DNA from: Nitrospirota bacterium
Lineage (GTDB): Bacteria; Nitrospirota; UBA9217
NCBI GenBank assembly: GCA_963790205.1
Contig: CAWBNQ010000002.1
Span: 160,001 to 224,000, forward strand
DNA length: 64,000 nt
Direction: 5' to 3'
This document shows positions 26,624 to 64,000 of this stretch, in pieces; the first letter of the stretch is position 1, and the number at the start of each line of letters is the position of its first letter. Made by a program: the position numbers and the translations under genes. The notes below the pieces were generated by a model that saw nothing but the letters and a program-made list of their open reading frames with translations, ran no database searches and had not been told where the DNA came from.

Positions 26624-26630
26624 ATCAAAT

Positions 26631-27707
26631 TCAGGGGTTACCGGTTTCCGGTAGCTCCTTTTCTTTTGACTGTGATAAAAATGTGATAATTTCCCCGTAG
26701 CTCTTCTCTAGCTGGCTGATTGCGCTGGCAAGGTGCTTCGGTCCGATGTGGGCATAACGCCGGGTCATGCGCGTGTCCTTGTGTCCCATGAGGTCGGCCA
26801 GAGTATCCAGATCCACTCCCGCCTGTCTGTTCCATGATGCGAAACAGTGCCGAAGATCGTGGAACCGGAAATTTTCAATCTTAGCCGCTTTCAGCGCCTT
26901 TTTGAAAGCCCTCTGCACCTGCATCGCCGTGTAGGGCTTTCCGTCCGCATGGCAAAAAACACGCGGATTATTGAGGCGTGTGACCTTCATCGCTTCTTTC
27001 AGGGCTTCATAAGCAAGAGTGGCGATCGGAATGATCAGGGGCTCCTCATTCTTCATTTCTGAGCTATCAAGTGAGATCGTCCGCGCGAAGATATTTACCT
27101 GATCCCGCCGCAGGCTGAGGATGTTTCCCTTCCGTAATCCTGTCCATGCCGCCACTGTCACGATACCCTTGAGCCACCCGTCGCATTCTTTCAGGAGCCT
27201 GTGGTATTCCTCATAGGAGAGATACCTGAGCCGCTTTGTATCGGCCTGCCGCTCCATCTCGATTGGTGGCACTTCCCTGAGCCACATCCAGCGTTTCTTT
27301 GCAAGGTTGAGCATACGCTTCAGGATGTTCAGCTTTCTAACGATCGTCGCCGGCTTGTCCTTCTCACCTTTGCGCTTTTGCCTGAATTCATCGATCACTG
27401 CGGGCGTAATTTGTGCCAGTGTTCGGGAGCCGAAGAACTCTTTCAGCTGCCGAAGGTAGCTTTCCACCGACCGCCAGCTTTTAAGCTCTTTGAACTCGGT
27501 CGCTTCATACTTAGCGACGAGCTCCTCGAAAGTCCTCTGACTGCCCTCGTCGATTTCGAGCCACTTGCCCTCTGCGATCTGCGTCATGACCTTGCGGTAA
27601 ATCTTTGCGGCCAGCTTCTTGTCGTTTGTTTCCGTGGGTCTTCTCAGCTGCTTACCGTTGTATGTAAAACACATCCACCAGGCTTGGCCTCTTCTGTACA
27701 GTCCCAT
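26631..27707 (-). CDS. Tyrosine recombinase/integrase
   Basis: TGLRKGNI (R), FRFHDLRH (HxxR), LMGHKD..MT.RYAH (H, Y); N-terminal arm-binding region. Confidence 0.95.
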   Translation of the reverse strand: MGLYRRGQAWWMCFTYNGKQLRRPTETNDKKLAAKIYRKVMTQIAEGKWLEIDEGSQRTFEELVAKYEATEFKELKSWRSVESYLRQLKEFFGSRTLAQITPAVIDEFRQKRKGEKDKPATIVRKLNILKRMLNLAKKRWMWLREVPPIEMERQADTKRLRYLSYEEYHRLLKECDGWLKGIVTVAAWTGLRKGNILSLRRDQVNIFARTISLDSSEMKNEEPLIIPIATLAYEALKEAMKVTRLNNPRVFCHADGKPYTAMQVQRAFKKALKAAKIENFRFHDLRHCFASWNRQAGVDLDTLADLMGHKDTRMTRRYAHIGPKHLASAISQLEKSYGEIITFLSQSKEKELPETGNP

Positions 27708-28036
27708 TAAACCTCCTTCCTGAGACCGTGATGTTGGCCTGGTTTCCCGTTGGATGGATTATACTCTTTACCCTTTGTGCCTTCAATAGCTCTTTTGACG
27801 ATGGAGTCTATGTCTTGAGGATGTTTTTTCACGATGTAAAGTTCCTGTTTCTTCGGTTCTTTGCGTGAAGCCTTGACCCAGTTTTCGATTTCTACCATGT
27901 CGAAACGTATCAGCCCATTTAGCTTATGAAAAGGGATTAAGCCGGTATGCACCCATGAGTAAAGTGTTGATTCTTTGACTGTAAGGAATCTAGAAAGCTC
28001 TTTTACCGTTACAAACGTCATGGTTTCTTTTTCCAT
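27707..28036 (-). CDS. Excisionase-like HTH_17 DNA-binding protein
   Basis: FVTVKELSRFLTVKESTLYSWV..GLIPFHKLNGLIRFD; stop overlaps integrase start. Confidence 0.85.
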   Translation of the reverse strand: MEKETMTFVTVKELSRFLTVKESTLYSWVHTGLIPFHKLNGLIRFDMVEIENWVKASRKEPKKQELYIVKKHPQDIDSIVKRAIEGTKGKEYNPSNGKPGQHHGLRKEV

Positions 28037-28136
28037 TATTCGTTCTGTCTTTTTGTTGGTATTTCGTGATAAAACGTAAAATAGATAACAATGCCGATCA
28101 GAGCAACCCAGCCGAGCGGCTTTATTTCCCATCCTG

Positions 28137-28217
28137 CTAAAAGGGGATCTCGCCGACCCCAACTCCACTCGCGAACTTCACCGTAGATTTTCCAATGTCA
28201 AATTCGATTGCAGTCAT
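28137..28217 (-). pseudogene. 26-codon diverged copy of the parM 5' end
   Basis: MTAIEFDIGKSTVKFASGVGVGEIPF* versus ParM MTAIGIDMGKSAVKYASGAGVGEIPS at 34249. Confidence 0.85.
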
Positions 28218-28278
28218 AGTCCCGCCTGTTTGATATGGTGTGGCGCACACCACACCATATGTTTCATGCTATTATGCT
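28142..28278 (-). repeat. Inverted diverged copy (~140 bp) of 34183-34324 (parM upstream region + 5' coding)
   Basis: Reverse complement AGCATAATAGCATGAAACATATGGTGTGG...AAACAGGCGGGACTATGACTGCAAT...GAGATCCCCT aligns with 34183-34324. Confidence 0.9.
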
Positions 28279-28292
28279 GCGTGAAATATTTA

Positions 28293-28329: not shown

Positions 28330-28372
28330 TAAATATTGATTTACTGCTTTACACGGCTATTCAATGCGGTAA

Positions 28373-28590
28373 GGATCCGATTTCAAGCTTCAAGTAGTTA
28401 AGAAGCACCTTGAGGAGAGCATTTCTGTTTCGGTGACCCGGCAGGAACGCGGGCTGAGCGGTGAGAGCTAGCTTATCGTCGTGATGGTGAAGCAGGGCTT
28501 ACCACAAACTACCGGGGAAAGGGCAGAAGTCTTCCCGCCCTGGTCAAACAGAAGATCGTCGAAGTAAAAGAAGCCAACCCGCTGTTCAGC
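28373..28590 (+). pseudogene. Degenerate transposase N-terminal (HTH) fragment
   Basis: GSDFKLQVVKKHLEESISVSVTRQERGLS* then shifted frame YRRDGEAGL..SLPALVKQKIVEVKEANPLF, resembling IS3/IS481-type N-termini. Confidence 0.55.
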
Positions 28591-28741: not shown

Positions 28742-29206
28742 TTAAGCGCTTTTCTTCCCACCGATGTTTCCAAAATTTATTATTACAATTGGCAATAGAA
28801 GAACCAATAAAATTATTGTAAAGACCGCCATGAACGATGAATTAAATTTCACAGACAAAACATAACCGACAAAAGAAGAACACCCCAGAATGATCAGCCA
28901 CTTTTTACTTTTTCTCCAGTTGGCTTCGATCTGTTCTTTTTTTAAATGTTCGCGAAGGGGATAACCGCAGTCAGGGCAGGTAATCGCGGCGCGAGCCGGA
29001 TTGTTATTGCATACCGGACATTTTGTTTTGTCGGGGTTCAGCGGCTGAGAGGCAGAACTGCTCTCGACATAATTAAGGAGATATTGTTTCAAATCATCTT
29101 TAAGCTCGCTTACGTTCTCTTCCTCCGAAGGCAACCGTCGACCTCTCTTGATTGCTTCTTCAGATAAGTTAATTATCTTGTTCGGCTTATTTTCAGTATC
29201 GTTCAT
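28742..29206 (-). CDS. Hypothetical protein with double CxxC zinc ribbon and two C-terminal TM helices
   Basis: CPVC..CPDCG; hydrophobic C-terminus; directly downstream of the XRE gene. Confidence 0.65.
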   Translation of the reverse strand: MNDTENKPNKIINLSEEAIKRGRRLPSEEENVSELKDDLKQYLLNYVESSSASQPLNPDKTKCPVCNNNPARAAITCPDCGYPLREHLKKEQIEANWRKSKKWLIILGCSSFVGYVLSVKFNSSFMAVFTIILLVLLLPIVIINFGNIGGKKSA

Positions 29207-29647: not shown

Positions 29648-29734
29648 ACAGTGTATTATATACTACTTGAAGGGCTCTGTAAAGCAATATAACGCTTGAC
29701 TTTAAAATATAATATACAGTATACTGTATAAAGT
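29648..29734. promoter_or_regulatory. Divergent promoter switch with palindromic operator
   Basis: Minus: TTTACA (29678-29683)-17-TATAAT (29655-29660); plus: TTGACT (29696-29701)-18-TATACT (29720-29725) overlapped by TATACAGTATACTGTATA. Confidence 0.7.
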
Positions 29735-30145
29735 ATGAATGAGACCATTGTCGATGAGCTGTACCTGCGGGAACACTTACGGCTTAGTGAGTCTTTTATA
29801 GCGAGACACAGCCGCAGTATGGGTTGTTTCGCGCGAAAGCCGCGAAGATTCTTTCTGGCTCAGGTCATGGCGCATCTCGAATTTCTGGCAGCAGAAGCAC
29901 AGGCTAGGGCGCATGGCCGAAAGTCGGCGCAAACGACACAAATCCGCAACGTGCGACGGATGGCAGACCATGTTATCCAATCGAAATACAAAAAATTGAA
30001 AGACGGGGTAACGGATTTTGCCGAGTATTTCGCCCGACAATACGATGGCGAAGACGCCCCTGGTAAGACGAATCGCAAGAGATATAAGGGCATCCAGGGA
30101 GAACACAACACTAAGACGGACTTGCCGGCTGCGGAGACGGTGTGA
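29735..30145 (+). CDS. Hypothetical protein (first gene of rep operon)
   Basis: 136-aa ORF overlapping the next gene by GTGA; follows the promoter directly. Confidence 0.6.
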   Translation: MNETIVDELYLREHLRLSESFIARHSRSMGCFARKPRRFFLAQVMAHLEFLAAEAQARAHGRKSAQTTQIRNVRRMADHVIQSKYKKLKDGVTDFAEYFARQYDGEDAPGKTNRKRYKGIQGEHNTKTDLPAAETV

Positions 30146-31071
30146 AGAATAGAATTAATGATGATAGTGATGAGATAGTCATTATTGATGAAACCAACCG
30201 AGGATTCACCGTGGTCGCTCAATGGATTCTTGAGCTGCCGCTGCGTGCTACGCCGAAAATGGTATTTATCGCCCTTAAATCATTTTCCGGCTTTGCCGAG
30301 ATCAGGCCGTCAATCAGAACAGTAGCACTGAGAGCGGGTTGCTCTCGCTCCACAGTAAAACGCTGTGTCCAGATATTGGAAAAGAAAAAGCTGGTTTACA
30401 TAAAACAGGGAAAACGGCCAGATGGAGGAGACGGTGCCAATATTTACGTTCTACGAAATCCTGACGATAAGCCCCCGGTTCAAAATGAACCCGGGGTCAA
30501 TATGAACCAGGCCCAGGGTCACAGTGGACCGGGGGCCAGGTTCAATGTGAACCCCCAAAAGAATAATAACAAACAATACATAAAAACACACATGGTCGAT
30601 AGTGTGTCTGCTGAAGCTGTTGAAGAGATACTGTCAGGCAGGTTTTCAAGTGTTGACCGCAACTGGCTTATTTTGCAAATACGAAGGACCAAGCGGCCTG
30701 TAAAGGAAATATTACGAGACCTTGACCGTCTCTGCTGGCAGTACGGCAAGGCTAATGCCCAGGAAGTCAGGGCTCCAGAGGCATTGGTTCTAAAGGCAAT
30801 CTGCGAAGGCTGGGCGGAACCGGATGGATTCGTGGCTGCTGAGGATCGTAAGCGAAGGTCTCAGGAGTCGGAATCTGCTGCTTCCCAGGCCGAGGCAGCA
30901 GAACGAGCACGTGAAGAAGCTGAGGCGCGACACTGGGAGGCGGCTAGGAAACAGTTTCGAAATTTGTCAGAAGCCGAGCAGCAAAGATATTTAACGAGGT
31001 ATTCATGGATGCGCCATGAACGGCGTGAAGCGGCGGCCATCGGCGCATATATGCGGAAGACGGGCATATAA
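30142..31071 (+). CDS. HTH_36-type replication initiator-like protein
   Basis: RGFTVV..W, KMVFIALKSF..IRPSIRTVALRAGCSRSTVKRCVQILEKKKLV..NIY.L winged helix; internal iterons. Confidence 0.72.
   Translation: MKNRINDDSDEIVIIDETNRGFTVVAQWILELPLRATPKMVFIALKSFSGFAEIRPSIRTVALRAGCSRSTVKRCVQILEKKKLVYIKQGKRPDGGDGANIYVLRNPDDKPPVQNEPGVNMNQAQGHSGPGARFNVNPQKNNNKQYIKTHMVDSVSAEAVEEILSGRFSSVDRNWLILQIRRTKRPVKEILRDLDRLCWQYGKANAQEVRAPEALVLKAICEGWAEPDGFVAAEDRKRRSQESESAASQAEAAERAREEAEARHWEAARKQFRNLSEAEQQRYLTRYSWMRHERREAAAIGAYMRKTGI
30477..30590 (+). repeat. Four 15-bp imperfect palindromic iterons plus A-rich tract (putative ori inside rep)
   Basis: GGTTCAAAATGAACC 30477, GGGTCAATATGAACC 30494, GGGTCACAGTGGACC 30516, GGTTCAATGTGAACC 30539; then AAAAGAATAATAACAAACAATACATAAAAACACA. 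Confidence 0.75.
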
Positions 31072-31092: not shown

Positions 31093-33918
31093 ATGCTTTC
31101 TATCACGAATGTCTCCACTGCCCAAGCTGGTTCCTACTATCAAAAGGATTCATACTACGCCGCCGAGCCCGGCGAATGGCAGGGTAGGGGCGCGGATGCA
31201 CTCGGCCTTCGGGGGGAAATAACTTACGACGATTTCAAAAGAGTGGTCCGGGGTTTCGATCCTCGCAATCCTGATATCGAGAAACCGTTTGTCGGTGACG
31301 GCGCCAACGGTACGCGGAGGGCCGGGACAGATTTAACTTTTTCCGCGGGAAAGGGGCTGTCCTTACAGGCACTTGTACATGGCGACATGAACATTACCCT
31401 GGCTCACCGCGAAGCCGTGTCCGCGACTCTGGATTACATTGAACAGCATTACGGACAGGTGCGTGAGATGACGGATGGCGTGTCCTCAAAAGTGTATACC
31501 GGTAACCTCGTCATCGCCAAGTTCGACCATTCTACCAGTCGCGAGCTGGACCCGCAGCTTCATACACACGCGCTCGTGCTTAATCTTTCGCAAAAAAAAG
31601 ACGGCTCATGGAGAGCGCTGTCGAATGAGAAGCTATACGAAGCGAAGATGTTTATCGGTCAGTATTACAGAAGCGAAGTCGCCGCACGAATTGTGGAGCA
31701 AGGCTATGCCATAGAGACCCAATTGGGCGGGCTGTTCGATCTCCGGGGCGTGGACGAGAAATTGAAAGAAGTATTCTCATCCCGGTCTGAACAAATTGAC
31801 AATAAAATGAACGAGCTCCGCAAGGACTATCCGAACGCCGCAGATCAGAAGCTCCGCGAGATGGCGGCCCTCGGTTCCCGCGTTGCAAAGCAGGACGTGG
31901 ACATGAGCATTGTCCGAGAGTTATGGAATGCACGACTCAGTGAACTTGGATACTCGAGGGAGGGCATTGACCAGGCAGTGAAGAGTAAAGCTCGGCGGGC
32001 CGAGGCGGGAAAAGACATATCTCAGCAGATGAGCAGTTACGATGCAGTGCGCACAGCGACCCGAATCATTACCGAGCAAGAGTCGGTTTTCACAAAAGAA
32101 GAATTGCTAAGGACTGCCGGGGCTCTCACCCTGGGGACTTTCCGCATTTCTGAACTCGAACGCATAACCCGCGGCATGGAGAAAAATGGTGAATTGATCA
32201 AGATGGGCAACGAATACACCACGGTGGAGATGAAGCGTATTGAGGCTCTGAACGTTCGACTCATGAAAACGGGCCAGGGGCAAGAAACGTCTATCATGAG
32301 CGAGGGTGAGGCCAAATCGTTGATTCAATCCAATTACCCCTACCTCACTCATGGCCAAGCGTCGGCATTTACGAACATACTCACGACGCATGACCGGATC
32401 ATCGGCGTCCAGGGCTACGCCGGAACAGGGAAAACAACGCTTTTCCACGCCATCCGGGAACAAGCGGAATCTCAAGGGTTGAAAATTCAGGGACTCAGCT
32501 TCACGGGTAAAGCAGCTGAAGAAATTCAAAAAAATTCCGGGATCACGAGCAGTACGATAGACTCTTTTTTTGCACGCGGCCAAAAGATGGAGTCTGACGC
32601 AATCTATGTCGTGGATGAGGCCAGCATGATCGGCAGCCGTCACGTAAACCGGCTTGAACGAATGGCGATCGAAAGCAAGGCTCGCCTGGTTCTCTCCGGG
32701 GATGCCAAACAGCTCCCGGCGATATCAGCAGGCTGTCCCTTCGCTGAATTGCAAAAAAATGGTATGAGCACCACGGTGATGGGGGAGATCGTCAGACAGA
32801 AGGATGGTGCCTATCGGGAGATCGTAAAGGACATCGTCGATGTAAAAATCGATAATGCCTTTGAAAAACTTGCCGCTCATGACAAGCTCAAAGTCATCCC
32901 GGACCGGGCCGAGCGGATCGAGGAGATAGTGAGAAGCTATACGAAAGACGAGGATTGGCGGAATACGATCATCACGACGCAATATAACGCAGACCGGGAC
33001 GACCTGAACGGAAAAATACGTGAGACCTTGCAAGAACGCGGAGAACTCGGCAGGCATGAAATTCGGGTTGCTGCGAGAGTCCCGAAATCGCTCTCGCCCC
33101 TCGAACACCACTTCGCCCAGTCATATCAACGGGGCGATCATATTTTTGCAAGATTTTCCGGGAGCGGGATGAGGGCCGGGGCCGAGGGGCAGATCGTCGG
33201 CATAGACTCCCAGGCTCATACACTGTTCGTCGAGAAATCATTGTCAGGAGAAAAGGTCGAGATCGACCTCAAGACAGCGGGAGAGATGTTGACGGTATTT
33301 CAAGAGCAAAGGATCTCCCTTGCGCCCGGCGAGAAGGTCGTTTTTTTGAAAAACGACTCACAGCTCGGGCTTAAAAACGGGCAGACAGCTGAATTCAAGA
33401 AAGTTGATTCCGTGTCCGGGAAACTCATGTTCGAAAGAAACAGCGGAAGGGTCCAGTTTACCATCGAGGAATATAACTATCTGGACTATGGCTATGCCCG
33501 GACAGTTCATAAGGGACAGGGAGTAACCGAGCGCAATGTCATCGTCCATGCCCCCGCAAACGGTCAAAGTTATAACAGCTTCTATGTGGGCGTGACCCGA
33601 GGACAGTATAACGTAAAAGTCTTCACGGACGACCGCCAGGCACTTGAGGCAAGGGTGAGGGAGGAAATCGAGAAAACATCCTCTTACCGTGAGCGGGAAC
33701 GAGAGCAGGAAACAGGCCTATCAGATGAGCGAAAGGCCGACAGTATCAAAAAGGATCAGGGCCTGGCGGGAGAAGATACCATGCGTATTGATTCTGACAT
33801 TCCCCCCGATTCCTTTAAATCGGACGAAGCAGGAAAGGAGGCCTCAAAGTCCTCGGGAGGGGCTGAAAAGGGCACTATCGCTCTTTCCCGGGGCAGGGAA
33901 ATCGAACTGGAGATGTAA
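31093..33918 (+). CDS. trwC: MOBF conjugative relaxase-helicase (TrwC/TraI)
   Basis: GSYYQKDSYY, W.G.GA..LGL.G, DLTFSAGK, H.TSRELDPQLHTH, FSSRSEQI; helicase QGYAGTGKT, VDEASM, GDAKQL, YARTVHKGQG.T, YVGVTR. Confidence 0.95.
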   Translation: MLSITNVSTAQAGSYYQKDSYYAAEPGEWQGRGADALGLRGEITYDDFKRVVRGFDPRNPDIEKPFVGDGANGTRRAGTDLTFSAGKGLSLQALVHGDMNITLAHREAVSATLDYIEQHYGQVREMTDGVSSKVYTGNLVIAKFDHSTSRELDPQLHTHALVLNLSQKKDGSWRALSNEKLYEAKMFIGQYYRSEVAARIVEQGYAIETQLGGLFDLRGVDEKLKEVFSSRSEQIDNKMNELRKDYPNAADQKLREMAALGSRVAKQDVDMSIVRELWNARLSELGYSREGIDQAVKSKARRAEAGKDISQQMSSYDAVRTATRIITEQESVFTKEELLRTAGALTLGTFRISELERITRGMEKNGELIKMGNEYTTVEMKRIEALNVRLMKTGQGQETSIMSEGEAKSLIQSNYPYLTHGQASAFTNILTTHDRIIGVQGYAGTGKTTLFHAIREQAESQGLKIQGLSFTGKAAEEIQKNSGITSSTIDSFFARGQKMESDAIYVVDEASMIGSRHVNRLERMAIESKARLVLSGDAKQLPAISAGCPFAELQKNGMSTTVMGEIVRQKDGAYREIVKDIVDVKIDNAFEKLAAHDKLKVIPDRAERIEEIVRSYTKDEDWRNTIITTQYNADRDDLNGKIRETLQERGELGRHEIRVAARVPKSLSPLEHHFAQSYQRGDHIFARFSGSGMRAGAEGQIVGIDSQAHTLFVEKSLSGEKVEIDLKTAGEMLTVFQEQRISLAPGEKVVFLKNDSQLGLKNGQTAEFKKVDSVSGKLMFERNSGRVQFTIEEYNYLDYGYARTVHKGQGVTERNVIVHAPANGQSYNSFYVGVTRGQYNVKVFTDDRQALEARVREEIEKTSSYREREREQETGLSDERKADSIKKDQGLAGEDTMRIDSDIPPDSFKSDEAGKEASKSSGGAEKGTIALSRGREIELEM

Positions 33919-34248
33919 TCCGACGCGCTGTGCCGCAAGGAAGAAACAGTCCGATGGAGGTCAAAAAGAGGTAGCGCTTAGCGTTGTTTCTTTGCGCTCG
34001 TCTTGTTCACACCCAACGCAACCTGTCGTTGCCTTGGGCGTTTACAAACATCAAAATTACAGACAAAATCCTCGAATTATCAACAGATTTGGCGTATACG
34101 CTCTTGTATACGTTAGCTCGAGAAAAAAGCGGTTTCAGCCGCGCCAGTACAGGCGTTAACGGCGTTAACCAAAATTTGACGAAGCATAATAGCGTGAAAC
34201 ATGTGGTGTGGCGTGCACCACATCACACCACAACAAACAGGAGGGACT

Positions 34249-35238
34249 ATGACTGCAATAGGAATTGACATGGGCAAATCTGCGGTGAAGTACGCAAGTG
34301 GAGCCGGGGTCGGGGAGATCCCCTCCTATGTTGCACGAGGGACTATTACCCGCGTTCTTCCGGCCCAAGGTAATGGGAACCGGTCGGTTTCGGTCAAAGT
34401 GGACGGTATCGATTGGCTGCTTGGAGAGGATGCGACAATGGGCACAAATTTCGTCTGGCAGACGGATGAAAACAAGGGAGGTGAAAGGAACCAGCTTTTC
34501 ATGCTGGCGGTCTTGGGCATGCTCGGTCTCAGCGAAGCCGATGTGGTGGTCGGGCTACCCGTCAGTCTGGCTGAAAATGAAAAGGTACGTGAGGCGGCCA
34601 AGAAGGCTTTCTCAGGTGAGAGGCAAACGATTGTCAACGGACGGGAAATGACATTCCGAATCAATGCCCGTGTGGTTGCTGAGCCGCTTGGGACGTATTT
34701 CAGTTTGGTTTTGGACGAACAGGCCCGGCCCCTCACTTCATCGCCCTTTTACCGGGACCAGATGGCAGTAGTCGATATCGGCTTCAGGACTGTGGATATA
34801 GTCACGCTTCGCTCCGGTAGGCTGGCAGCAGCGAAGGATTCAACGCTTTCCGGAACCGTGACCCTTTTCGAAAAGGCATGGAAGCTCTTGGAGCAAAACC
34901 ATGGCATGCTCAAGGCAAATGAACGCGTGAAGGTCTACGAAACAGCTACCAGAAACTTCGGAACATCTCATCTCAGCATTAACGGCGAATACGTATCGCA
35001 GGGTTTCTGGAGCGAGATCGTCAAACTGAAACGACAGCTTGCCCACGATATCGTGGATGAGGTCAGAGGTACTCTTGGCAATATCCGTCCCGATCACATT
35101 GTTGTGACCGGAGGAGGCGGTCTATTTCTGAAGGATGATCTGCTCGCTACTGAAAAGAGCCTGACAATACACCCAAACCCCAGGTTTGCAAATTCAATCG
35201 GTTTTTATCGCGCTGCGCTCGCCGGAGCCAGGAGGTAA
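34249..35238 (+). CDS. parM: ParM/StbA actin-like partitioning ATPase
   Basis: IGIDMGKSAVK, VVVGLP, EPLG, VVDIGFRTVD, VTGGGG, FANSIGF; RBS GGAGG. Confidence 0.88.
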   Translation: MTAIGIDMGKSAVKYASGAGVGEIPSYVARGTITRVLPAQGNGNRSVSVKVDGIDWLLGEDATMGTNFVWQTDENKGGERNQLFMLAVLGMLGLSEADVVVGLPVSLAENEKVREAAKKAFSGERQTIVNGREMTFRINARVVAEPLGTYFSLVLDEQARPLTSSPFYRDQMAVVDIGFRTVDIVTLRSGRLAAAKDSTLSGTVTLFEKAWKLLEQNHGMLKANERVKVYETATRNFGTSHLSINGEYVSQGFWSEIVKLKRQLAHDIVDEVRGTLGNIRPDHIVVTGGGGLFLKDDLLATEKSLTIHPNPRFANSIGFYRAALAGARR

Positions 35239-35241
35239 GGG

Positions 35242-35652
35242 ATGCCGGACCTGCGTTTCCTCAATGTCCGCTTCAACCTCGATGCCCCGGACGAACAAGC
35301 TATATTCAAAGCTTTAAACGCCTATCCAACCGGCGCAAGGAGTCAAGTGGTACGGAAGGCCCTGGCCGCATACTTGGGGATCGAGATCGGGACAGAGGAG
35401 AGCAGGGCAACTCAAATGCCTGCTCGTAAGTCCAAACCTTTGCAGACTCATGGTAGGGGAGGTACCAAGGCGCCAAAGACACATATCATTGAGCCGGCAG
35501 AGAGCTCAGGACCCGGTCAGGAAAAACATCGAGAAAAGCACCGTGAAGAACCGGCTCCTGAATCAGTGGTCGATTCTGCTCATGTCCAGGAAGGGGATGA
35601 AAGCGTTGACGAACGAGACGCGGTCAAAGGACTCCTTTCAATGTTGCATTGA
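35242..35652 (+). CDS. ParR-like DNA-binding adaptor (putative)
   Basis: Immediately after parM; RHH-like N-terminus (LNVRFN..EQAIFKAL..RSQVVRKALAAY), disordered middle, short C-terminal helix. Confidence 0.6.
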   Translation: MPDLRFLNVRFNLDAPDEQAIFKALNAYPTGARSQVVRKALAAYLGIEIGTEESRATQMPARKSKPLQTHGRGGTKAPKTHIIEPAESSGPGQEKHREKHREEPAPESVVDSAHVQEGDESVDERDAVKGLLSMLH

Positions 35653-35882: not shown

Positions 35883-36251
35883 ATGAAGACGATTGGCGTA
35901 AGACTTGATGGAGAGGCAATACGAACTCTAAGAGACCGGGCTGTTGAGAACGGCCAGACGATATCTGAGACGGTCAGGTCAATCATCATGGATGCCCAGG
36001 AGCGCGAAAGATTGGAGTCGAGGCTGTCTACTATTGAGGTCAGACTCAATGGTCTGGTCGATGCTTTTCGGGAGATGGACGGCTTACGGCGCTTTCGGAG
36101 CCTCTACGCTCAAACAAAACGAACCACAATCGCCGTTGATGAACTTGTCCGCGCATTGCTTGGAGATCAGAAATACGCAGGCTGGAAGACGGTCGTGGAC
36201 AAGGCTATGAAGGAAGCTGCTACCCAGGTAGTCTCAAAAATCGACAAATAG
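35883..36251 (+). CDS. Ribbon-helix-helix + coiled-coil protein (possible relaxosome accessory)
   Basis: MKTIGVRLD..LRDRAVENGQTISETVRSII; RBS AAGGAG; upstream of T4CP. Confidence 0.6.
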   Translation: MKTIGVRLDGEAIRTLRDRAVENGQTISETVRSIIMDAQERERLESRLSTIEVRLNGLVDAFREMDGLRRFRSLYAQTKRTTIAVDELVRALLGDQKYAGWKTVVDKAMKEAATQVVSKIDK

Positions 36252-36265: not shown

Positions 36266-36526
36266 ATGAAACAGGCAACGGAAAAGTCCATAGAGGCGAT
36301 GACCAGGTGGGAATTTGGTGAGCATCTCCGCGTGCTCAGGCAGAAAAAAGGACTGAGCATGAAGAAACAGGCGGAAAGTCTTGGTGTTTCGGCCCAACAG
36401 CTTCAGAACCTTGAACACGGTGGTGTGGTCCAGCCGAAATATGGCACTGTCGTGAAGCTTTCACGGGCGTTCAGGATCAGGGAGAAACAGATATTGAAGG
36501 TCTTTTTTCACAAGGATACAAAATGA
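36266..36526 (+). CDS. XRE-family HTH protein
   Basis: FGEHLRVLRQKKGLS..QAESLGVSAQQLQNLEHG..QP. Confidence 0.8.
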   Translation: MKQATEKSIEAMTRWEFGEHLRVLRQKKGLSMKKQAESLGVSAQQLQNLEHGGVVQPKYGTVVKLSRAFRIREKQILKVFFHKDTK

Positions 36527-54603: not shown

Positions 54604-54622
54604 CATGGAGCATGTAAAACTT

Positions 54623-56076: not shown

Positions 56077-57717
56077 ATGAAGAAGCTATTGAGTATGATC
56101 TGTCTTTGCATATTTCTTTTCTCGTGCGGCGGGTCTGGCGGCAGTGGTAGTAGTGGTGCGCTTCCGCCTCCGATACCTACTGGAACCGTCAAGGGTACCG
56201 CGCACGATAATATTCTTGTCGGTTCCACTGTCACGGCTTATCAGTATACTAACGGAACAAGAGGCCAAGTCCTCGGAACAGCCACTACGGATAGCAATGG
56301 TAATTACTCATTAAGCGTTCAGGTTGAAACATGCCCCATTCTCCTTGAGGCAACTGGTGGATATTATAAAGAAGAGGCGACTAATCCACCTTATCAGGTG
56401 AATTTAAAAGCCGGCCAAGTGCTTGACGCTGTGATGAATTACACCACCGGAGGCAATATCAGCGTGCAGCTTACGCCTTTTACCCATATTGCGGCAGGCC
56501 TCGCAGCGTATCGCATATCTACGGGGACAAATGTCGCGACGGCGATCGATACGGCGAATCAGGATGTAAGCACGATGCTGGGTTTTAATATTCTCGATGT
56601 CACGCCCCTTGATGTTACCAATCCGCTTAATGCTTCTGCCTACGTTAGCAACGGGCTCGTCTACGGCTTCTTGAGCGCGGCAATATCCGACTGGACGTTA
56701 TACGCCAGTATGAAAGTAGAGCCAGGTACACCCCATGCACACTTTAATTCAATTGCCCTGGCTCAGATAATGTATACGGATATCGTGGCAGACGGCGTCC
56801 TGGACGGTAAAGGATTAGATGCGACGGGGCAGCTTGTACCGCTTTCCTTTGGTGTCCTTCCGCTCGATGCGAATGTTTATAGTCATGCACTGGCGGCGCA
56901 TATGATTCAGTTTGCCGATAGTTCACCAAATAACGCTACATCCCTTACGGGAGCGGACCTGCAAACCTTCGCGGCCGCATATGCCGGATATACCGGTGTT
57001 ATCTTTGGCACAGTCGCGCCTTTACCTTTTGTGAACAACGGAGTGCCTGTTATTTCAAACCCGACTATAAGCGGACTTGCAACAAGCCCCACTGCTACGC
57101 CGCTTCTTGCCGGCTCCTGGATCGGCAACACAAAGACCATTTGCGCAACTGTAGCAAGCACAGGCGCATTAGATTCCGGCTCAATAACTCTTAATAATAC
57201 ACCAACGTATATATCAAGCTATGAGAGTTCAACTCAGCCCTGCTGGAATCTTGATTCGTCTGTTGCATCTGACGGTACTAACACCCTCTCTTTTAATGTG
57301 ATAGACACTTACGGTATTGTATCGTCTCCTACGCTTACGATTGCCGTCAAAATCGACAATACCCGTCCTGCTATGACTGCCAAATACGCGTTTTATTCGG
57401 CTGACAATATTGTTATAGGCCCTGGTATAGGTCTGGTGTTTACTGTATCCGATTCCGGATCGGGCGTTTATTCAATTAAGAACTTGGATAACGGACATAA
57501 AGCATTTTCGCTTGCAGCTTATGGGTTTCCGGGTCAATGGGAGATTCTTTCACGAACTGCCTATTCCTTTGACGTACAAGCCACTTGGACCATACAGATA
57601 GAAGATTATGTTGCGAATTGCGGTACTTATTATGTTAAATCTTATCCTATCCAACCTTTCATGCAGGTTGAATTTCTTGCTCAAGTGACACTTCTGCCGG
57701 CGGGACCTTGTCATTAA
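56077..57717 (+). CDS. Surface lipoprotein with beta-sandwich/Ig-like domains
   Basis: Lipobox LFSC-GGSGGSG; ATTDSNGNYSL, LTPFTH, IDNTRP; Ser/Thr-rich. Confidence 0.7.
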   Translation: MKKLLSMICLCIFLFSCGGSGGSGSSGALPPPIPTGTVKGTAHDNILVGSTVTAYQYTNGTRGQVLGTATTDSNGNYSLSVQVETCPILLEATGGYYKEEATNPPYQVNLKAGQVLDAVMNYTTGGNISVQLTPFTHIAAGLAAYRISTGTNVATAIDTANQDVSTMLGFNILDVTPLDVTNPLNASAYVSNGLVYGFLSAAISDWTLYASMKVEPGTPHAHFNSIALAQIMYTDIVADGVLDGKGLDATGQLVPLSFGVLPLDANVYSHALAAHMIQFADSSPNNATSLTGADLQTFAAAYAGYTGVIFGTVAPLPFVNNGVPVISNPTISGLATSPTATPLLAGSWIGNTKTICATVASTGALDSGSITLNNTPTYISSYESSTQPCWNLDSSVASDGTNTLSFNVIDTYGIVSSPTLTIAVKIDNTRPAMTAKYAFYSADNIVIGPGIGLVFTVSDSGSGVYSIKNLDNGHKAFSLAAYGFPGQWEILSRTAYSFDVQATWTIQIEDYVANCGTYYVKSYPIQPFMQVEFLAQVTLLPAGPCH

Positions 57718-58135: not shown

Positions 58136-58456
58136 ATGAAAAAAATCACGGCATGTATTCTTGGCATGTGGGCTATTGTTTATGCGCTATCAGCAGAAGC
58201 GGCGCTGCAGCTGCCGAATTATGCAGCGGGTGGCGCGAACCTTCAAGGGGACCTCGAATCAACAGGCAGCGCAATTACAAAGATCCTTCTCGGGTTGACT
58301 GTTATGATCGGAATCGCCGGGATAATATTTTCAGGGATGGCGTTTGCCGCCGGCGACGGTGAAAAGGGAAAGGAACGTCTGAAATACTCAGTTATCGGTC
58401 TGATCATCGCGGCAACGGCAGCGGGCATCGCGTCAATTGCGACGGGAAATCATTAA
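58136..58456 (+). CDS. virB2: VirB2/TrbC-like conjugative pilin
   Basis: Signal peptide, two hydrophobic helices separated by GDGEKGKERLK; first gene of MPF operon. Confidence 0.7.
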   Translation: MKKITACILGMWAIVYALSAEAALQLPNYAAGGANLQGDLESTGSAITKILLGLTVMIGIAGIIFSGMAFAAGDGEKGKERLKYSVIGLIIAATAAGIASIATGNH

Positions 58457-58731
58457 TGGGCGCATTCAACCGAAGACTTGAACCAAAGGAAATAAACGGC
58501 ATGCCGTTAGAGGGCATGGCGGCGCTTGTCATGGCGCTCATTTTCCTCTCGCTTACCTTAATAGCTCCCGGAATTGCCAAGATCATTCCGGGACTGTTGT
58601 TGACCGGATCGATTATCGCGGCCATAATCGCTTTTGCGTTTCGAGCGGAGCTTCCTTTTTTGGTCGTAATTCTTCAAGGCAGGTTCATTGAACCTCGTCG
58701 CGTTACGTCGGAAACACGGACGCGCTTATAA
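58456..58731 (+). CDS. VirB3-like membrane protein
   Basis: Small 2-TM protein (INGMP) between pilin and VirB4. Confidence 0.6.
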   Translation: MGAFNRRLEPKEINGMPLEGMAALVMALIFLSLTLIAPGIAKIIPGLLLTGSIIAAIIAFAFRAELPFLVVILQGRFIEPRRVTSETRTRL

Positions 58732-58737: not shown

Positions 58738-61122
58738 ATGACAGACCTTTTACAGCTCAACCCGAGACAATACGCCGACCTCTTCACGTGGTCACATCCT
58801 CTCGGCGATCACGCCATGGCGCACACGGACGGCGCGGTATCTGTCATGATCGAGTGGGAAGGTTTGGATGCAGAGCTTCTCACTCCTGATCAGCGATCGG
58901 CGGCATGGGAAGGTTATTACACCATCCTTCACTCTATACCGGTCGGCTGGGTCGCCGAGTGGCACTGGTGGAGAGAGAAAGAAGAATCCCTTGCCGACGC
59001 GTATCTCGCACACAGTACAAAGATGTCCCGGCCGAGCGAGTTGGCAAACGTTATTCGCGTCGAGCAAGCCGACCATCTTCGTCGCATGTCCCGCAATAAC
59101 GCGGTCGGCCTGGTCCTGACCGTACCGCCGAAAAAAAGGTTCTTTACCGGTGCGAAGCGGGCGTTAGTTGCCCAGTCCGACCTGGCGGATGCTCTGCTTG
59201 AAAAAGTACAGTCCATCATCACGAACTTAAAAGGCGCGCGAGTGTCGCCCGTCGCGGACTACGCGGCGCGTATCTGCCAAAGCAGCGACCGGGGAAAATT
59301 CAAACGCGGCCATCCCGTGGGGATCGATCCGCGATTCTTACTCAACGAGCAGCTGATACGCGTAGCGCCGGGACAGGACAAGAATCTCCTTGCCTTCGGT
59401 GATGTCTTTACCAAAGTACTTCTCTTGTATCTTTATCCTGACGCGCAGCCGGCATGGTTTTCCGGCATATCGTCACTTCCTATCGATATGCATGTGGTAT
59501 CGATCCTGCGCCCGAAAGATACCCGCCAGGCGCTTAAAGCAAGCGAGAAAAAGACGGATTTCGCAGAGGGGTCCCTTGGCCGTCAGGGCCGAAGCCTTCA
59601 GGCCCGGGTCGTCCAGGACTTAAACGACTTTCAAAACTTCGTCGCGACAAATGCTTTATCGATTTTCGACAACTCGTATATTATTCATCTGCATGGCACG
59701 CGCGAAGAAGTAACGCGATACGCGCAGTCTATTACCGATTGGTGCGAGCCTGCCGGGGGACAGATTCGAGACGCCGATTATATGCAGTATCCGTATTTCC
59801 GGTCCGCGATGCCGGGCCAGGGCTACCGAGTGCCTCTGTTTCGGCCTGATCACTCCTGGCAGGTCGGCAATATGCTGCCGGTCCAGGTGAACCGGACCGG
59901 CGAGGCGGAGCCGGAGAGTCTTCGCCTGGGCGCTGCCGGCCAGCTGGTCGGTTTCGGGATCAGCACGCAGTCCGTGCCTCATTCCTTCACTGTTGCCATG
60001 ACGGGCGGCGGCAAGGGCGTTGACAAGGTCGCCACGATTGCCGAAACATACCCCTTTGGCATCGATTGGTATATCGCCGAGATCGGTGGCAGCTACAAAT
60101 GGATTGTCGAGGGGCTCGGGGGAGTATATTCGCGGATTGATCTGAGCGAGACGGTGGTAAATCCCTTGCCGCCGTTTTCGATTGCCGACCAGGCAGAGAC
60201 CTATCCGTTAAATGCCGTTATCGCAGGCGGCACGGTGAACTCGCTTGCGTTCCTTCTTACAGACGGCAGCACGGTCCTCGATATCCATAAGCAGCGGGTA
60301 GCTGAAGATGCGCTACAGAGGTTGTACGCGGTGGCGGATTTAGCGCGGGAAGCGCCGACGCTCCCGGATTTCTTAGCCGAGCTTGAGCGCGCTGATTATC
60401 CCGATGAACCCGAGGAAGCAGCAGCGGCAAAGAGTATGAGCAGCAAGCTGCACTCGTTCCTTGAAACGACCGGGGGCCGGGTATTCACCCGACAGGACAA
60501 CCTTGTTCTCTCCGAGGGGATCACCGGCGTGGACCTGAAAGACGTTGACCGGGCAAGCCCCAAGATGCTTAAATTCTACCTCGTGTTTCTGGCCCTCAGG
60601 TTCAGCCATCTTGCTTTTGCGCGGCGTAATCCGGCGCGCGTGCTTCTCGATGAAATGCACAAGTTCGTTAAAAGCTTTCCCGAGGTGATCGGCAAGCTGA
60701 TTTCGGAACTTGCGAGAATGGGGCGGAAAGACGCTGCCGCCATTGATATCGTCACGCAAGGCATTGCGGAAATAGACTGTATAGAAAAAGAAGTGCTTAA
60801 CTCAATGCCGCTGCGGTCGCTTTTATACCGGCCCGACGAACACGACACAATAGCCGAGCGTATTGCAATGCCCTCCGGAGCTCTCGCGATCTGGAAATCG
60901 TATCCCGACCCGACTAATTTTCCGTGGCGACCGGCTATGAGGTCCGTTGGAGGCGATTATTATAACCTGTATCTGACGTTTCCGAAGATTCTTCTGGATC
61001 TCGCCGCTACCGGCACGCGAGCCGGACAAATAGCCGATCTTGATCTCAAAGACGAAATCGGAAGCAAGATATCGGATCCCATCGAGAGACTTAAAGAGTT
61101 CAGGCGAAGGAGGCAAGCATGA
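58738..61122 (+). CDS. virB4: VirB4-like T4SS ATPase
   Basis: 794 aa; HSFTVAMTGGGKG (deviant Walker A), EIGGSY, VNPL, LLDEMH, RMGRK..VTQ. Confidence 0.8.
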   Translation: MTDLLQLNPRQYADLFTWSHPLGDHAMAHTDGAVSVMIEWEGLDAELLTPDQRSAAWEGYYTILHSIPVGWVAEWHWWREKEESLADAYLAHSTKMSRPSELANVIRVEQADHLRRMSRNNAVGLVLTVPPKKRFFTGAKRALVAQSDLADALLEKVQSIITNLKGARVSPVADYAARICQSSDRGKFKRGHPVGIDPRFLLNEQLIRVAPGQDKNLLAFGDVFTKVLLLYLYPDAQPAWFSGISSLPIDMHVVSILRPKDTRQALKASEKKTDFAEGSLGRQGRSLQARVVQDLNDFQNFVATNALSIFDNSYIIHLHGTREEVTRYAQSITDWCEPAGGQIRDADYMQYPYFRSAMPGQGYRVPLFRPDHSWQVGNMLPVQVNRTGEAEPESLRLGAAGQLVGFGISTQSVPHSFTVAMTGGGKGVDKVATIAETYPFGIDWYIAEIGGSYKWIVEGLGGVYSRIDLSETVVNPLPPFSIADQAETYPLNAVIAGGTVNSLAFLLTDGSTVLDIHKQRVAEDALQRLYAVADLAREAPTLPDFLAELERADYPDEPEEAAAAKSMSSKLHSFLETTGGRVFTRQDNLVLSEGITGVDLKDVDRASPKMLKFYLVFLALRFSHLAFARRNPARVLLDEMHKFVKSFPEVIGKLISELARMGRKDAAAIDIVTQGIAEIDCIEKEVLNSMPLRSLLYRPDEHDTIAERIAMPSGALAIWKSYPDPTNFPWRPAMRSVGGDYYNLYLTFPKILLDLAATGTRAGQIADLDLKDEIGSKISDPIERLKEFRRRRQA

Positions 61123-61745
61123 AATCTAAATTTTTGTGTCTACTGTTTTTGTTTCTCGCTGTCTGCAGCACGCCGGCATATGCTTTTTGGGGTGTCGGTG
61201 ATGTAACCTTTGATCCGACCACCTATGGGGAAGTGGCAAATTTATATAAGCAAACGGTGGACCTATGGAATACGGCAAAATCATCGTTAAATACCCTCAA
61301 TCAAGTGCGGCAGACGTTGAATGACGCAAAAGCGGGTGTCGATGCGCTGAAAAATTTCAATTTAAAGCAGACCGCCGGCAACCTTACGGGCAACGGGAGC
61401 GCCGACAAAATAAATGCTTTGCGGGCTGAAATGTCGAATGTTGAAGGCGGTCTTTCGGGAAGTGCTTCGTATTTAAACTATCAGAGACAACGGATAACAA
61501 ACCTGCAAAATCTTGAAAAACTGCGGGGGGAGTCCGCGAAAAATCTGTCGAAGGCGAGCGATACTACGAGCGCGGATGCTAATGGTAAGATTACCGCTCA
61601 GTCAACCTCGACAATGGCCGCGCTCGCGGCTGCGGAGAGTCAACGGAAAGAACAACAGGACATGGCTACTGCTCGTGATGCCGAGCAGCGCCGAAGCCTT
61701 GTTGGTGAGTCTAGTAAAATCTACGATGCGATAGGAAATGATTAG
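61119..61745 (+). CDS. VirB5/TrbJ-like secreted helical protein
   Basis: Signal peptide AYA, DVTFDPT, coiled-coil body; follows virB4. Confidence 0.65.
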   Translation: MKSKFLCLLFLFLAVCSTPAYAFWGVGDVTFDPTTYGEVANLYKQTVDLWNTAKSSLNTLNQVRQTLNDAKAGVDALKNFNLKQTAGNLTGNGSADKINALRAEMSNVEGGLSGSASYLNYQRQRITNLQNLEKLRGESAKNLSKASDTTSADANGKITAQSTSTMAALAAAESQRKEQQDMATARDAEQRRSLVGESSKIYDAIGND

Positions 61746-61747
61746 CC

Positions 61748-62887
61748 GTGTTTAACAGTATTGCATTATTCGCGAGCAATTTCGACGTGTCGTCTATACA
61801 CCTGGCGGCAGGGGACATCGCAAAGGTTGTCGCGATGTATATATCGCCGACGCTGCTTATTTTGGCTATTTATACGCGCATACTTCAGGACAGCCTCGAT
61901 ACGTTTACCACGACGGGCTCGGGCGTCTGGGCTCGCGCGGTGCGCGATTTTATCGTATGGGGAATGGTCCTTGCATCCTATTTCGCAATAGGCAGTCTCA
62001 TCATAAAATTTGCGAACGATATCTATCGCTGGGGCGATACGGTAGGCGGTCTGAAGCTGATCACCGGCGATATGAGTGCTGCCGCGAAATTTATTGACGA
62101 AAAAATGAAAAGCGATACCACTTCGAGCTCTTTAATCAGAGGTTTTGTTACCGGGGGCGGGACGCTTACGTTCATTACCGGTCTTTTCTATTATCTGTCG
62201 CTTTTGATTGCCTCGTTTCTTGTTGTCGCTCTTAAGATTGCTCACGCGCTTGTTTTCGGCCTCGCTTTCATATGGGGCCTTATTGCAATCCCTGTTTCCG
62301 TATCGAGGGGCATCAAGCTTTTGCGCGGTTGGGCGCTTCTTCTCGGTTTTGCCCTGGTCTGGCCCCTGATCCAGGCGCTTTTGTTGGCCATCATTCGCCC
62401 ATCCTTCGTCAAAGCTTTAAATGCAATCATGACAAACAATACAAACTCAGGCGTTGACATGCTTTCTTCAGATCTTCTTATGACGGTTCTTAATCTCATA
62501 TTTGCCGCTACCGTTGTCGCGGCGCCTTATGTTGCCTCTGCGCTTGTCAGTAACTCGCCGGCTGCGGCGGCTATGGTCACTCCGTTCGTCGCTGCCGCCA
62601 TGACAGGGGTGTCGGGTGTCGTGGGCGGCGCGAGACTGGCCGGTGCGCGGCTTGCCGGCCGCGGGGGCGGGCAGGCCGCTGCCGCGGTAGCTAGAAAAGC
62701 TGCCGGCTCCTTTGGAATGGGCGGCGGCTCTTCTGGTGGAGGCACGTCAAAAGTAGAAAAGGGACCTTCCGGCTCGGCTCCGGCTGCGGTTACGCCGGGA
62801 TCGCCGGGACCGTCCAGTGATTCAGTTGAGGCAAAGCAGAAGCAACAACGTCGGGGCGTTATCATAAACAATCTGAGGAAAAAATAA
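61748..62887 (+). CDS. VirB6/TrbL-like polytopic membrane protein
   Basis: About 7 TMs, GLIAIP..LLRGW, Gly/Ala-rich C-terminal tail. Confidence 0.7.
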   Translation: MFNSIALFASNFDVSSIHLAAGDIAKVVAMYISPTLLILAIYTRILQDSLDTFTTTGSGVWARAVRDFIVWGMVLASYFAIGSLIIKFANDIYRWGDTVGGLKLITGDMSAAAKFIDEKMKSDTTSSSLIRGFVTGGGTLTFITGLFYYLSLLIASFLVVALKIAHALVFGLAFIWGLIAIPVSVSRGIKLLRGWALLLGFALVWPLIQALLLAIIRPSFVKALNAIMTNNTNSGVDMLSSDLLMTVLNLIFAATVVAAPYVASALVSNSPAAAAMVTPFVAAAMTGVSGVVGGARLAGARLAGRGGGQAAAAVARKAAGSFGMGGGSSGGGTSKVEKGPSGSAPAAVTPGSPGPSSDSVEAKQKQQRRGVIINNLRKK

Positions 62888-63547
62888 ATGAGCAAACCTG
62901 ATATTAAGCAAGAAGCAAGGCCGATTAAAGCGACCACAAATCCTTTGCTCCAACATGGGCTTACCGGCCAGCTTATTATGAGGTTGCAACGCTATGCGGT
63001 GTTGGGCTGGGGCCTGGCTATTTTAGTTATTGTTCTTCATTTTATTATTCTTGCGGTGGCTGCTACCGTTCCGCGGCCTGTCGTCGTCGTGGACCAGGGC
63101 GGCCGGGAGATCGGCAATATCGACTATCTCAAGGCAAGCTCGCGCTCTGATCAGGAAATCATTGCCGCCTCGATGCGTTATCTGACGCTCCGCTTAAGCC
63201 TTAACAGCGCCACCATATATAATGACCTGGCTGAAGCAATGAATATGGAATCCCCGCAAATGCAAGCAATTACAAAGGCTGCGATCACGGCAGATAACTA
63301 TTTGCAAAGGGTCGAACAGGTCAAGTCTCGCTCGTGGCTCGATTTTTCCACCGCTTCTAAAGCTCCGGTCATTCTCGAACGCCGGGGCCTTGAGGCGCGC
63401 GTGCGCCTCAAGGGCAATATCAATGTCGATATGGGCGGGAAACATGCCGAGCCGAAACCGTTCGACGTTACTCTTTCCATCAGTTCGGCGGCGCGAAATA
63501 CCATAAATACGGCGGGTATCCAAATCACGGATATGAGGGACAACTAA
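62888..63547 (+). CDS. VirB8-like bitopic protein
   Basis: Single TM, PVVVVDQGG, C-terminal RNTINTAGIQIT; position in operon. Confidence 0.6.
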   Translation: MSKPDIKQEARPIKATTNPLLQHGLTGQLIMRLQRYAVLGWGLAILVIVLHFIILAVAATVPRPVVVVDQGGREIGNIDYLKASSRSDQEIIAASMRYLTLRLSLNSATIYNDLAEAMNMESPQMQAITKAAITADNYLQRVEQVKSRSWLDFSTASKAPVILERRGLEARVRLKGNINVDMGGKHAEPKPFDVTLSISSAARNTINTAGIQITDMRDN

Positions 63548-63550
63548 GAT

Positions 63551-64000
63551 ATGAATAAACTTTTACATTTCTGCATTATTACATTTTTATTGAGCGCGGT
63601 CCTTTTCCCGTTCAGCGCCAATGCCGAGCCGCGCGTGAAAACAGTAACCCTTGAGTCGCACACGTCGCTTACCGCTTACCTCATTCCGAATCTCGGTGTG
63701 CGCTTTATATTTCCTTTTATTCTCGACGAGTCGGATGATTTTATACCCTTTACGTCACAACTCACGAATCAATCTTTCAATTATAAGCGCGAACAAGGGC
63801 GTAACTCTTTCGTCGTCTGGATCACTCCCCAGGCCGGACAACAATGGGGCGACCTTTTCGTCACGGTAGCGGGATATCTCATCTCTATAGAAATTAAGAC
63901 CACGAACGATGCGAGTTTGTTTTACAGTGACATCAATTTTACTCTCGGGACCGCCGAGCGTGAGGATATTATTCAGAAAAGCATAAAACAGCGAACCAAG
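63551..64000 (+). CDS. Secreted T4SS core protein (VirB9/TraK-like), truncated by window end; absent from ORF track
   Basis: ATG 63551 opens a 150-codon stop-free frame MNKLLHFC..SANA-EPRVKTVTL..GVRFIFP..GDLFVTV. Confidence 0.55.
   Translation, partial: MNKLLHFCIITFLLSAVLFPFSANAEPRVKTVTLESHTSLTAYLIPNLGVRFIFPFILDESDDFIPFTSQLTNQSFNYKREQGRNSFVVWITPQAGQQWGDLFVTVAGYLISIEIKTTNDASLFYSDINFTLGTAEREDIIQKSIKQRTK

Follow-up and report, generated by a model that had tools for sequence, protein, structure and literature searches.

A probable mosaic integrative and conjugative element with a little-known secretion system in a Nitrospirota bacterium

The stretch of DNA considered here ("the window") comprises 64,000 nucleotides from a Nitrospirota bacterium (C2:160001-224000, where C2 is contig CAWBNQ010000002.1 of a 4.34-Mb assembly in 14 contigs). 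Beginning at a tRNA-Glu gene, it carries what is likely to be one mosaic integrative and conjugative element (ICE), built from known kinds of module and belonging to a family that we have not found described. The element encodes an integrase, a repressor-controlled replicon, an actin-like partition system, a MOBF relaxase, a TrwB-type coupling protein and a type IV secretion system (T4SS), and its core genes within the window are uninterrupted open reading frames (ORFs). This reading is based on directly observed gene content, an att repeat, motif conservation and synteny. A preliminary description of the window had assigned all of these modules to one integrative conjugative element, and the finding of the second att site and of a collinear relative upholds that assignment. 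The secretion system is the least known part of the element.

Attachment sites and extent

The tRNA-Glu gene marks a change in GC content, from 0.58 on its left to 0.45-0.53 inside the element. The features from this gene to the coupling protein are as follows.

26546..26623, +: tRNA-Glu(TTC), the integration target (ARAGORN, Rfam)
26580..26623, +: attL core, 44 bp, equal to the tRNA 3' end
26631..27707, -: tyrosine integrase (PF00589, E=1.5e-32; phrog_1)
27707..28036, -: excisionase-like HTH_17 protein, xis (phrog_66)
28142..28290, -: degenerate copy of the parM leader (83% at the nucleotide level), with leader, palindrome and first ~25 codons
28293..28344, -: P_xis, with an 18-bp palindromic operator over its -10 box
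28366..28590: relic of the 5' end of an IS481-like transposase gene (read by eye against the transposase ORF L004:13947-15494; matches in run X1)
28742..29206, -: zinc-ribbon membrane protein, co-transcribed with the repressor (94% identical copy in the sister element on contig C5)
29219..29647, -: XRE repressor without an S24 peptidase domain
29655..29730: back-to-back P_repressor and P_rep, with a second exact operator at 29713-29730
29735..30145, +: 136-aa ORF of no known family
30142..31071, +: phage-type replication initiator, Rep (HTH_36, lambda O-like/DnaD-like)
30477..30590, +: putative origin, with four 15-bp palindromic iterons followed by an A-rich tract
31093..33918, +: MOBF relaxase-helicase TrwC/TraI (PF08751, E=3.7e-75)
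34009..34034, -: predicted oriT, a hairpin plus 9 nt up to the predicted nic
34249..35238, +: actin-like ParM (PF17989, NF010498, phrog_691)
35242..35652, +: ParR-like adaptor (NF010497 at E=0.019 only; positional homologs in genomes G014 and G201)
35883..36251, +: ribbon-helix-helix protein, putatively TrwA-like (weak matches to that fold)
36523..38394, +: TrwB/TraD-type coupling protein (PF10412, E=1.4e-92)

The preliminary description proposed that a copy of the tRNA-Glu 3' end would be found downstream as attR. This copy is located on contig C14 (348317-348274, - strand), where it lies in the right orientation and is the sole other copy of the 44-bp core in the 4.34-Mb genome. The integrase is flanked by direct att repeats, as expected of an ICE, given a predicted join between C2 and C14. 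The same core is also duplicated around islands of 7-20 kb at tRNA-Glu in four relatives (G032, G148, G201 and G024), and close homologs of the integrase occur in 8 of 64 genomes of the family, this one counted.

The element continues past the window to the end of C2, across a gap, and along C14 from 369414 to 348267. C2 terminates 49.9 kb after attL in cysteine-rich cassettes and the start of an RHS gene, and the end of C14 holds a further cysteine-rich cassette and an RHS gene. Among the 28 contig ends, this repeat is found at only two, the 3' ends of C2 and C14. Because attR lies on C14 and the repeat marks only these two ends, the element probably spans at least 71 kb across one assembly gap. 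Beyond attR are another integrase relic and variable genes, and synteny there did not confirm the contig join.

Two observations concern earlier integration events. A C-terminal integrase fragment just outside attR (C14:348042-348239) is what remains of an earlier element at this tRNA. A relic int-xis pair (G000:C3:1056956-1070644, locus L004), rearranged by insertion sequences (ISs), lies at tRNA-Ala(GGC) and has the arm-type motif that also flanks attL and attR.

Control, replication, partition and transfer

The tRNA-targeting int/xis module was recognized correctly in the preliminary description: the tyrosine integrase has intact catalytic motifs, and it stands with the HTH_17 protein Xis (start corrected to 28036) beside tRNA-Glu(TTC). 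The three highest-scoring sigma-70 matches in the 12.5 kb between 26.5 and 39 kb are P_repressor (-29683), P_rep (+29696) and P_xis (-28327). The total number of matches is not above chance (16, versus 11.9 +/- 3.5 in shuffled sequences), and only position and score single these promoters out. Both P_xis and P_rep, the latter of which also drives traI, have an 18-bp palindrome lying across their -10 box; exact copies of this operator are found only at these two promoters and in the C5 sister element. This arrangement suggests that one repressor, by its predicted binding, couples excision to replication and relaxase synthesis. Because xis and rep share the operator, transient replication on induction seems favored over the lasting episome proposed in the preliminary description; that is, the arrangement points to replication that would be coupled to excision. 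It also yields a clear prediction as to when such ICEs replicate.

With the lambdoid immunity and replication region of phages, the region described here shares the back-to-back promoters, an XRE repressor, and an initiator with intragenic iterons and an A-rich tract. It differs in having no Cro homolog, S24 domain, helicase loader gene or virion genes, and in an operon that runs on into the relaxase. Searches of Pfam, NCBIfam and PHROGs gave no match for the 136-aa ORF, and a Cro homolog was not detected. Because the repressor also lacks an S24 domain, the "lambdoid-style" divergent repressor switch of the preliminary description is lambdoid in layout only. A prophage was rejected, there being no virion genes among the proteins scanned. 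The segment at 28366-28590 was considered as a non-coding RNA and rejected as such: it is the IS481-like relic, and Rfam gave just two tRNAs.

Rep matches PHROG families 186, 270 and 428 (E about 1e-8 to 3e-9) as well as HTH_36 clusters in Atlas, and it has the features of a lambda O-like initiator, i.e., an N-terminal winged helix-turn-helix (wHTH), intragenic iterons and an adjacent AT-rich tract. The four 15-bp palindromes, which had been noticed as iterons at the outset, span 30477-30553, after the wHTH; the motif occurs nowhere else in the genome, and none of 12 codon shuffles reached four copies. Two other Reps, those of the C5 sister element and of metagenome contig L117, each have three linker repeats of different sequence in the same place, a number reached in 1 of 12 and 0 of 12 shuffles, respectively. 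Rep has a single close homolog (58%), and no full-length homologs were found in 72,556 plasmids (three partial matches) or 50,697 phages.

Partitioning was described as type II and actin-like, and the genes agree: an actin-like ATPase (ParM, start corrected to 34249) is followed by a small adaptor, for which the match to ParR is weak. ParM homologs occur in 4 of 401 genomes of the phylum. A palindrome ahead of parM (34201-34232), with a copy at 28229, may represent parC repeats. In both sister elements (C2 and C5), the truncated parM leader that contains this copy separates xis from P_xis, and it is a candidate for bringing xis under the action of ParR.

The TrwC/TrwB-type transfer module also stands. 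TraI scores 257 bits on NF041492, against a cut-off of 100, has the features of the MOBF class including the nic motif, and has relatives in 28 of 401 phylum genomes, this one counted; a metagenome scan with the TrwB-type coupling protein as the query gave no match. The predicted oriT hairpin is on the strand opposite to traI, 90 bp beyond the end of that gene. The nic 12-mer is found downstream of traI on the opposite strand in exact form in 6, and in altered form in 3, of 29 other traI loci (the alignment, trimmed around the motif, serves as illustration only). Genome-wide, the exact 12-mer occurs at two places and a looser nic pattern at 24, so we base the nic prediction on position and conservation. 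Relaxase, oriT, coupling protein and a VirB4-containing pore all lie within the att sites, the content expected of an ICE.

These features suggest the following life cycle. In the integrated state, the XRE repressor would bind the one palindromic operator that P_xis and P_rep have in common. Induction would lead Xis and Int to recombine the two 44-bp cores and release a circle, which the O-like initiator would copy briefly from its intragenic iterons; ParMR would segregate the copies. TraI would then nick oriT, which lies shortly after traI, and the strand would be passed by the TrwB-type protein to the divergent T4SS; we infer that this coupling protein works with this pore. Given the predicted orientation of nic, int and the repressor would enter the recipient early, followed by the far arm (an ArdC fragment, RadC and DUF6573). 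The T4SS itself may have been gained by module exchange into a slot that holds F-type tra genes in sister elements.

The secretion system and its relatives

The preliminary description placed a VirB-like mating-pair formation (MPF) system about 20 kb away, behind defence cargo, and an operon does begin at 58136, 19.7 kb after the coupling protein. It called this T4SS divergent, which is true of its sequence but not of its direction, since it lies on the same strand as traI. The genes of the region are as follows.

54019..54603, +: outer-membrane beta-barrel (kept in 31 of 46 loci; Atlas gives an OMP/TraO-like lead)
54482..56026, +: RCC1-repeat/Big_2 lipoprotein, an insertion (no tblastn match in the 46 T4SS loci)
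56077..57717, +: Ig-domain lipoprotein (kept in 27 of 46 loci)
58136..58456, +: VirB2-like pilin (PF18895, above cut-off)
58456..58731, +: VirB3-like (conserved position, no family match)
58738..61122, +: divergent VirB4 with a deviant Walker A
61119..63547, +: VirB5-like and VirB6-like (position, size) and VirB8-like (PF04335, E=1e-4)
63551..64000, +: start of a VirB9-like gene
C2:224444-225355, outside the window: VirB10/TrbI-like (weak TraM-like match)

The pore thus comprises ten genes (VirB2, 3, 4, 5, 6, 8, 9 and 10-like, the beta-barrel and the Ig lipoprotein), of which B3, B5, B6 and B9 are named by position only. None of the eight PF00437 (VirB11) matches in the genome lies inside the element. 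The VirB9-like protein has no PDB sequence match and no common Pfam family (one DUF2381 match among 21 members), and no paper was found that pairs DUF2381 with "type IV secretion".

VirB4 has no Pfam match; it scores 85 bits against a cut-off of 567 on TraC-F and 45 bits against a cut-off of 643 on VirB4/CagE (TIGR00929), and a PDB sequence search gave a weak match (4ag5, E=0.19). All 25 aligned members of its family match TraC-F only weakly, and 14 of 14 more distant members fall below every curated cut-off shown. Their Walker A reads xTGxGKG in 22 of the 25, versus GxxGxGKS/T. Among 1.84 billion representatives, 97 proteins matched the family profile at E<=1e-30; full-length members score at least 325 bits, and the next full-length protein scores 117. 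A FastTree phylogeny of 96 rows, built after removal of 10 near-duplicate locus rows and every other distant member, sets the 66 VirB4-family rows apart by a branch with support of 100. This split carries a long-branch warning and was obtained against an outgroup without a named type set, in which 1 of 30 exceeded a curated cut-off.

Three described MPF types were considered and rejected: MPFT, on the VirB4/CagE score and the lack of VirB11 in the element; MPFF, on the TraC score and the lack of TraN, U, W, H, G and F among the proteins scanned; and MPFB, for want of a TIGR03783-type match. The likeness to MPFB is in architecture only. The Bacteroidota MPFB gene set (with TraG, J, K, M and N) has no VirB11, an outer-membrane beta-barrel and a lipoprotein by the core, and a traM-traN order. 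The pore described here likewise has no VirB11, a beta-barrel (the TraO-like lead), a lipoprotein beside the core and a weak TraM-like VirB10 match, whereas its B9-B10 order differs from traM-traN; models of Bacteroidota conjugative transposons matched neither the genes scanned nor the 25 VirB4 members.

The VirB4 clade is found at 46 loci in GTDB genomes, with 1 of 72,556 plasmids and 2 of 401 phylum genomes carrying it, and the gene order B2-B3-B4-B5-B6-B8-B9-B10 is kept in the 46 loci. A distinct coupling protein is found in 14 of the 46 and Replic_Relax-like genes in 13, both on matches below cut-off. Six loci (L010, L015, L018, L025, L030 and L123:14865-19393) show the pore with two Replic_Relax-like genes, ParB (at times ParA), the divergent coupling protein and a 118-aa protein, the usual partner set of this pore and possibly an unrecognised relaxase system. 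The plasmid representative, CP013100 of Candidatus Tenderia electrophaga, has a ten-gene pore in the family's usual order, with a VirB4 54% identical to ours; unlike the element, it is a circular plasmid that carries Replic_Relax-like genes and a different coupling protein. Its pore genes are annotated as hypothetical proteins, and MOB-suite types it as "mobilizable" only. A further 14 of the 46 loci, in Acidiferrobacter-type chromosomes (L022, L028, L031, L032, L036-L040, L042-L044, L047 and L049), have the pore between bioF/H/C and rpoH-ftsXEY, with shorter B9 and B10 and no relaxase or coupling protein nearby; this cluster is a candidate for a domesticated T4SS. The pore family's coupling protein had no match in five Acidiferrobacter-type genomes (a search without a positive control), and TrwB-type genes were found in two of the five.

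Eight MPF types are in use according to a 2025 review (PMC12282955). We put forward, tentatively and at somewhat less than even weight, that the VirB11-less ten-gene pore with its deviant-Walker-A VirB4 is an additional type outside these eight. Its range would cover Nitrospirota, Pseudomonadota and Thermodesulfobacteriota, and its normal partners would be Replic_Relax-like relaxases. It could be swapped into MOBF ICEs in place of F-type pores, and in Acidiferrobacter-type genomes it would be kept for other transport, without transfer genes and at one constant place in the chromosome. Should this be a distinct MPF type, a set of environmental conjugative elements is at present mistyped as no more than mobilizable; CP013100 appears to be one such case.

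Comparison of the whole element with described systems gives partial likenesses. SXT/R391 elements have a MOBH relaxase, an MPFF pore, prfC as their target, and a SetR repressor that governs excision and transfer. The element resembles them in being integrative with type II actin-like partition, and differs in its separate O-like initiator with iterons, its MOBF relaxase, its tRNA target and its pore; membership in SXT/R391 was rejected on MOBF, tRNA-Glu and the non-F pore. Carraro 2015 (PMC4489591) reports that srpMRC partition of SXT/R391 works and that SXT replicates through TraI at oriT. With MPFT ICEs that carry Rep and partition, the element shares an integrase, a theta replicase, partition and a VirB-like pore, and it departs from them in its poorly scoring VirB4, the lack of VirB11, two extra conserved envelope genes and a phage-like initiator. 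Like R388/IncW, it has a TrwC-type relaxase-helicase, a TrwB-type coupling protein and a ribbon-helix-helix accessory protein, as well as the hairpin-plus-9-nt layout given for the R388 nic substrate in PMC4176350; unlike R388, it is integrated, is ordered traI-oriT-parMR-ribbon-helix-helix-coupling protein, and has a TraI ~31% identical to the best plasmid relaxases.

The preliminary description set the hybrid design apart from well-studied ICEs, which replicate mainly through their relaxase. The design is not new, since ICEs with a theta replicase and partition, including type II, have already been published. Among 200 ICEs, Cury 2017 (PMC5587801) counts 23 partition systems (5 of type II), 16 theta replicases and six MPFT ICEs with both; for MPFT ICEs, Cury 2018 (PMC6107060) gives a replicase in 40% and partition in 11%. 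The suggestion of a possibly undescribed family in the preliminary description agrees with our search: no described family matched, and no published description of the element or the pore was found, in a searched literature that excludes most subscription papers.

One element or several

The head of the MPF region (48199..53418) comprises an S24 fragment, an SDR protein, a hybrid kinase, two XRE regulators and a response regulator. Its homologs precede F-type tra genes in G148 and G201. The search for syntenic elements proposed in the preliminary description was productive: in the G148 element, which sits at tRNA-SeC, gene order is retained from parM up to the promoter region of the MPF genes (parM, coupling protein, MazG, cargo, S24, XRE and response regulator, then F-type tra genes). 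On G201:C3, an XRE/response-regulator head also precedes an F-type pore, and on metagenome contig L117 a 46-bp att-like tRNA-Ala end, a Rep homolog and virB2-B3-B4 (70%) adjoin one another. These three cases argue against chance neighbors, and the simplest reading would be one backbone with an exchangeable pore. The element appears to belong to a group of tRNA-targeting MOBF elements in this bacterial family, itself probably Nitrospirota. Depending on the genome, one position in this backbone is taken either by an F-type pore or by the pore described here, a natural swap that makes coupling-protein/pore compatibility testable.

Several observations weigh against a single element. The C2-C14 join is predicted from the repeat, a third copy of which at C2:11.7 kb leaves room for misassembly, which is possible because the giant-protein/RHS block at C2:8-20 kb is 90% identical. 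No circle or empty site was seen, although run X1 (contigs only, 5% of words) matched just host genes and the IS relic, with no att joint, and speaks neither for nor against excision. The whole combination of modules is found in no other genome (VirB4 in 2 of 401 phylum genomes), no pore of the VirB11-less kind is present in the C5 sister, G024, G014 or G201:C63 elements, the G148 element is without TrwC in its assembly, and G024 has a different O-like Rep upstream of traI with only two repeats and no clear iterons. Among the 46 pore loci, many of which are short, TraI lies within 10 kb in none, a TrwB-type protein in one (L045), and another coupling protein in 14.

Two other histories would account for parts of this pattern. 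A mobilizable element (int, rep, MOBF, ParMR and coupling protein) might later have gained an unrelated T4SS that had lost its own relaxase and coupling protein, such that the pore does not serve this relaxase and instead exports giant/RHS proteins or is decaying. We regard this composite island as unlikely. The usual partners of the pore family (Replic_Relax genes, the c20 coupling protein and c13) are absent from the genome, several relatives of the backbone have no pore, and 14 loci keep the T4SS without transfer genes; however, the regulatory head before the pore is common to MPF-bearing relatives, L117 ties Rep to this pore, and L045 ties the pore to a TrwB-type protein. The far arm is rich in ISs and its RHS gene is in pieces, which also speaks for a composite island; against it, a 90% identical duplicate of the giant-protein/RHS block occurs elsewhere in the genome without any T4SS. 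Less probable still is an origin as a conjugative plasmid: with its phage-type replicon, this plasmid would have picked up xis-int behind a duplicate of the parM leader, and it might persist as a stable episome. The truncated leader between P_xis and xis in both sister elements would fit such an origin, as would the plasmid-like block of Rep, ParMR, oriT and coupling protein, the circular plasmid that is the sole PLSDB member of the T4SS family, and the plasmid-ICE interconversion documented in PMC6107060. Yet with the Rep operator shared with xis, steady replication would need a second control; plasmids hold only the three partial Rep matches, and every copy seen with flanks is integrated. 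A single mosaic ICE is therefore our preferred reading.

The C5 sister element (G000:C5:323297-335620) lies at tRNA-Ala(CGC), with RadC-ArdC-DUF6573 ~75 kb away; an attR was looked for there and not found. Identities to the element are 96% for xis, 85% for the repressor, 28% for Rep, 36% for TraI (frameshifted), 46% for ParM and 46% for the coupling protein, and cross-regulation or hitch-hiking between the two elements is possible. On G201:C3, loci L165-L168 form a large F-type conjugative region with ArdC and PRTRC-like genes, and there is no TrwC on the contig.

Besides IS elements, the far arm of the element carries RadC, DUF6573, dehydrogenases and an ArdC fragment cut by an IS. A block made up of a 2386-aa beta-helix/FlgD protein, several cysteine-rich small ORFs with a common C-terminus and an RHS gene, in that order, occurs at C2:227066-236501, C14:364754-369414 and C2:1520-20643; the second giant-protein/RHS copy, where there is no T4SS, adjoins an HTH gene, a primase-like gene and two tyrosine recombinases. 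Between the coupling protein and the MPF head is a defence hot spot (38597..48173, +) with a MazG-like protein, GmrSD_N plus HEPN, a type III-like Mod/Res pair, and an HTH-M78 peptidase with DUF4411; 2.6 kb at 45772-48405 are 80.6% identical to the G148 element. Within it, at 39021-40612, a GmrSD_N protein with PADLOC matches to NsnA and PD-T4-2_A and a RiboL-PSP-HEPN partner lie beside the type III-like Mod/Res.

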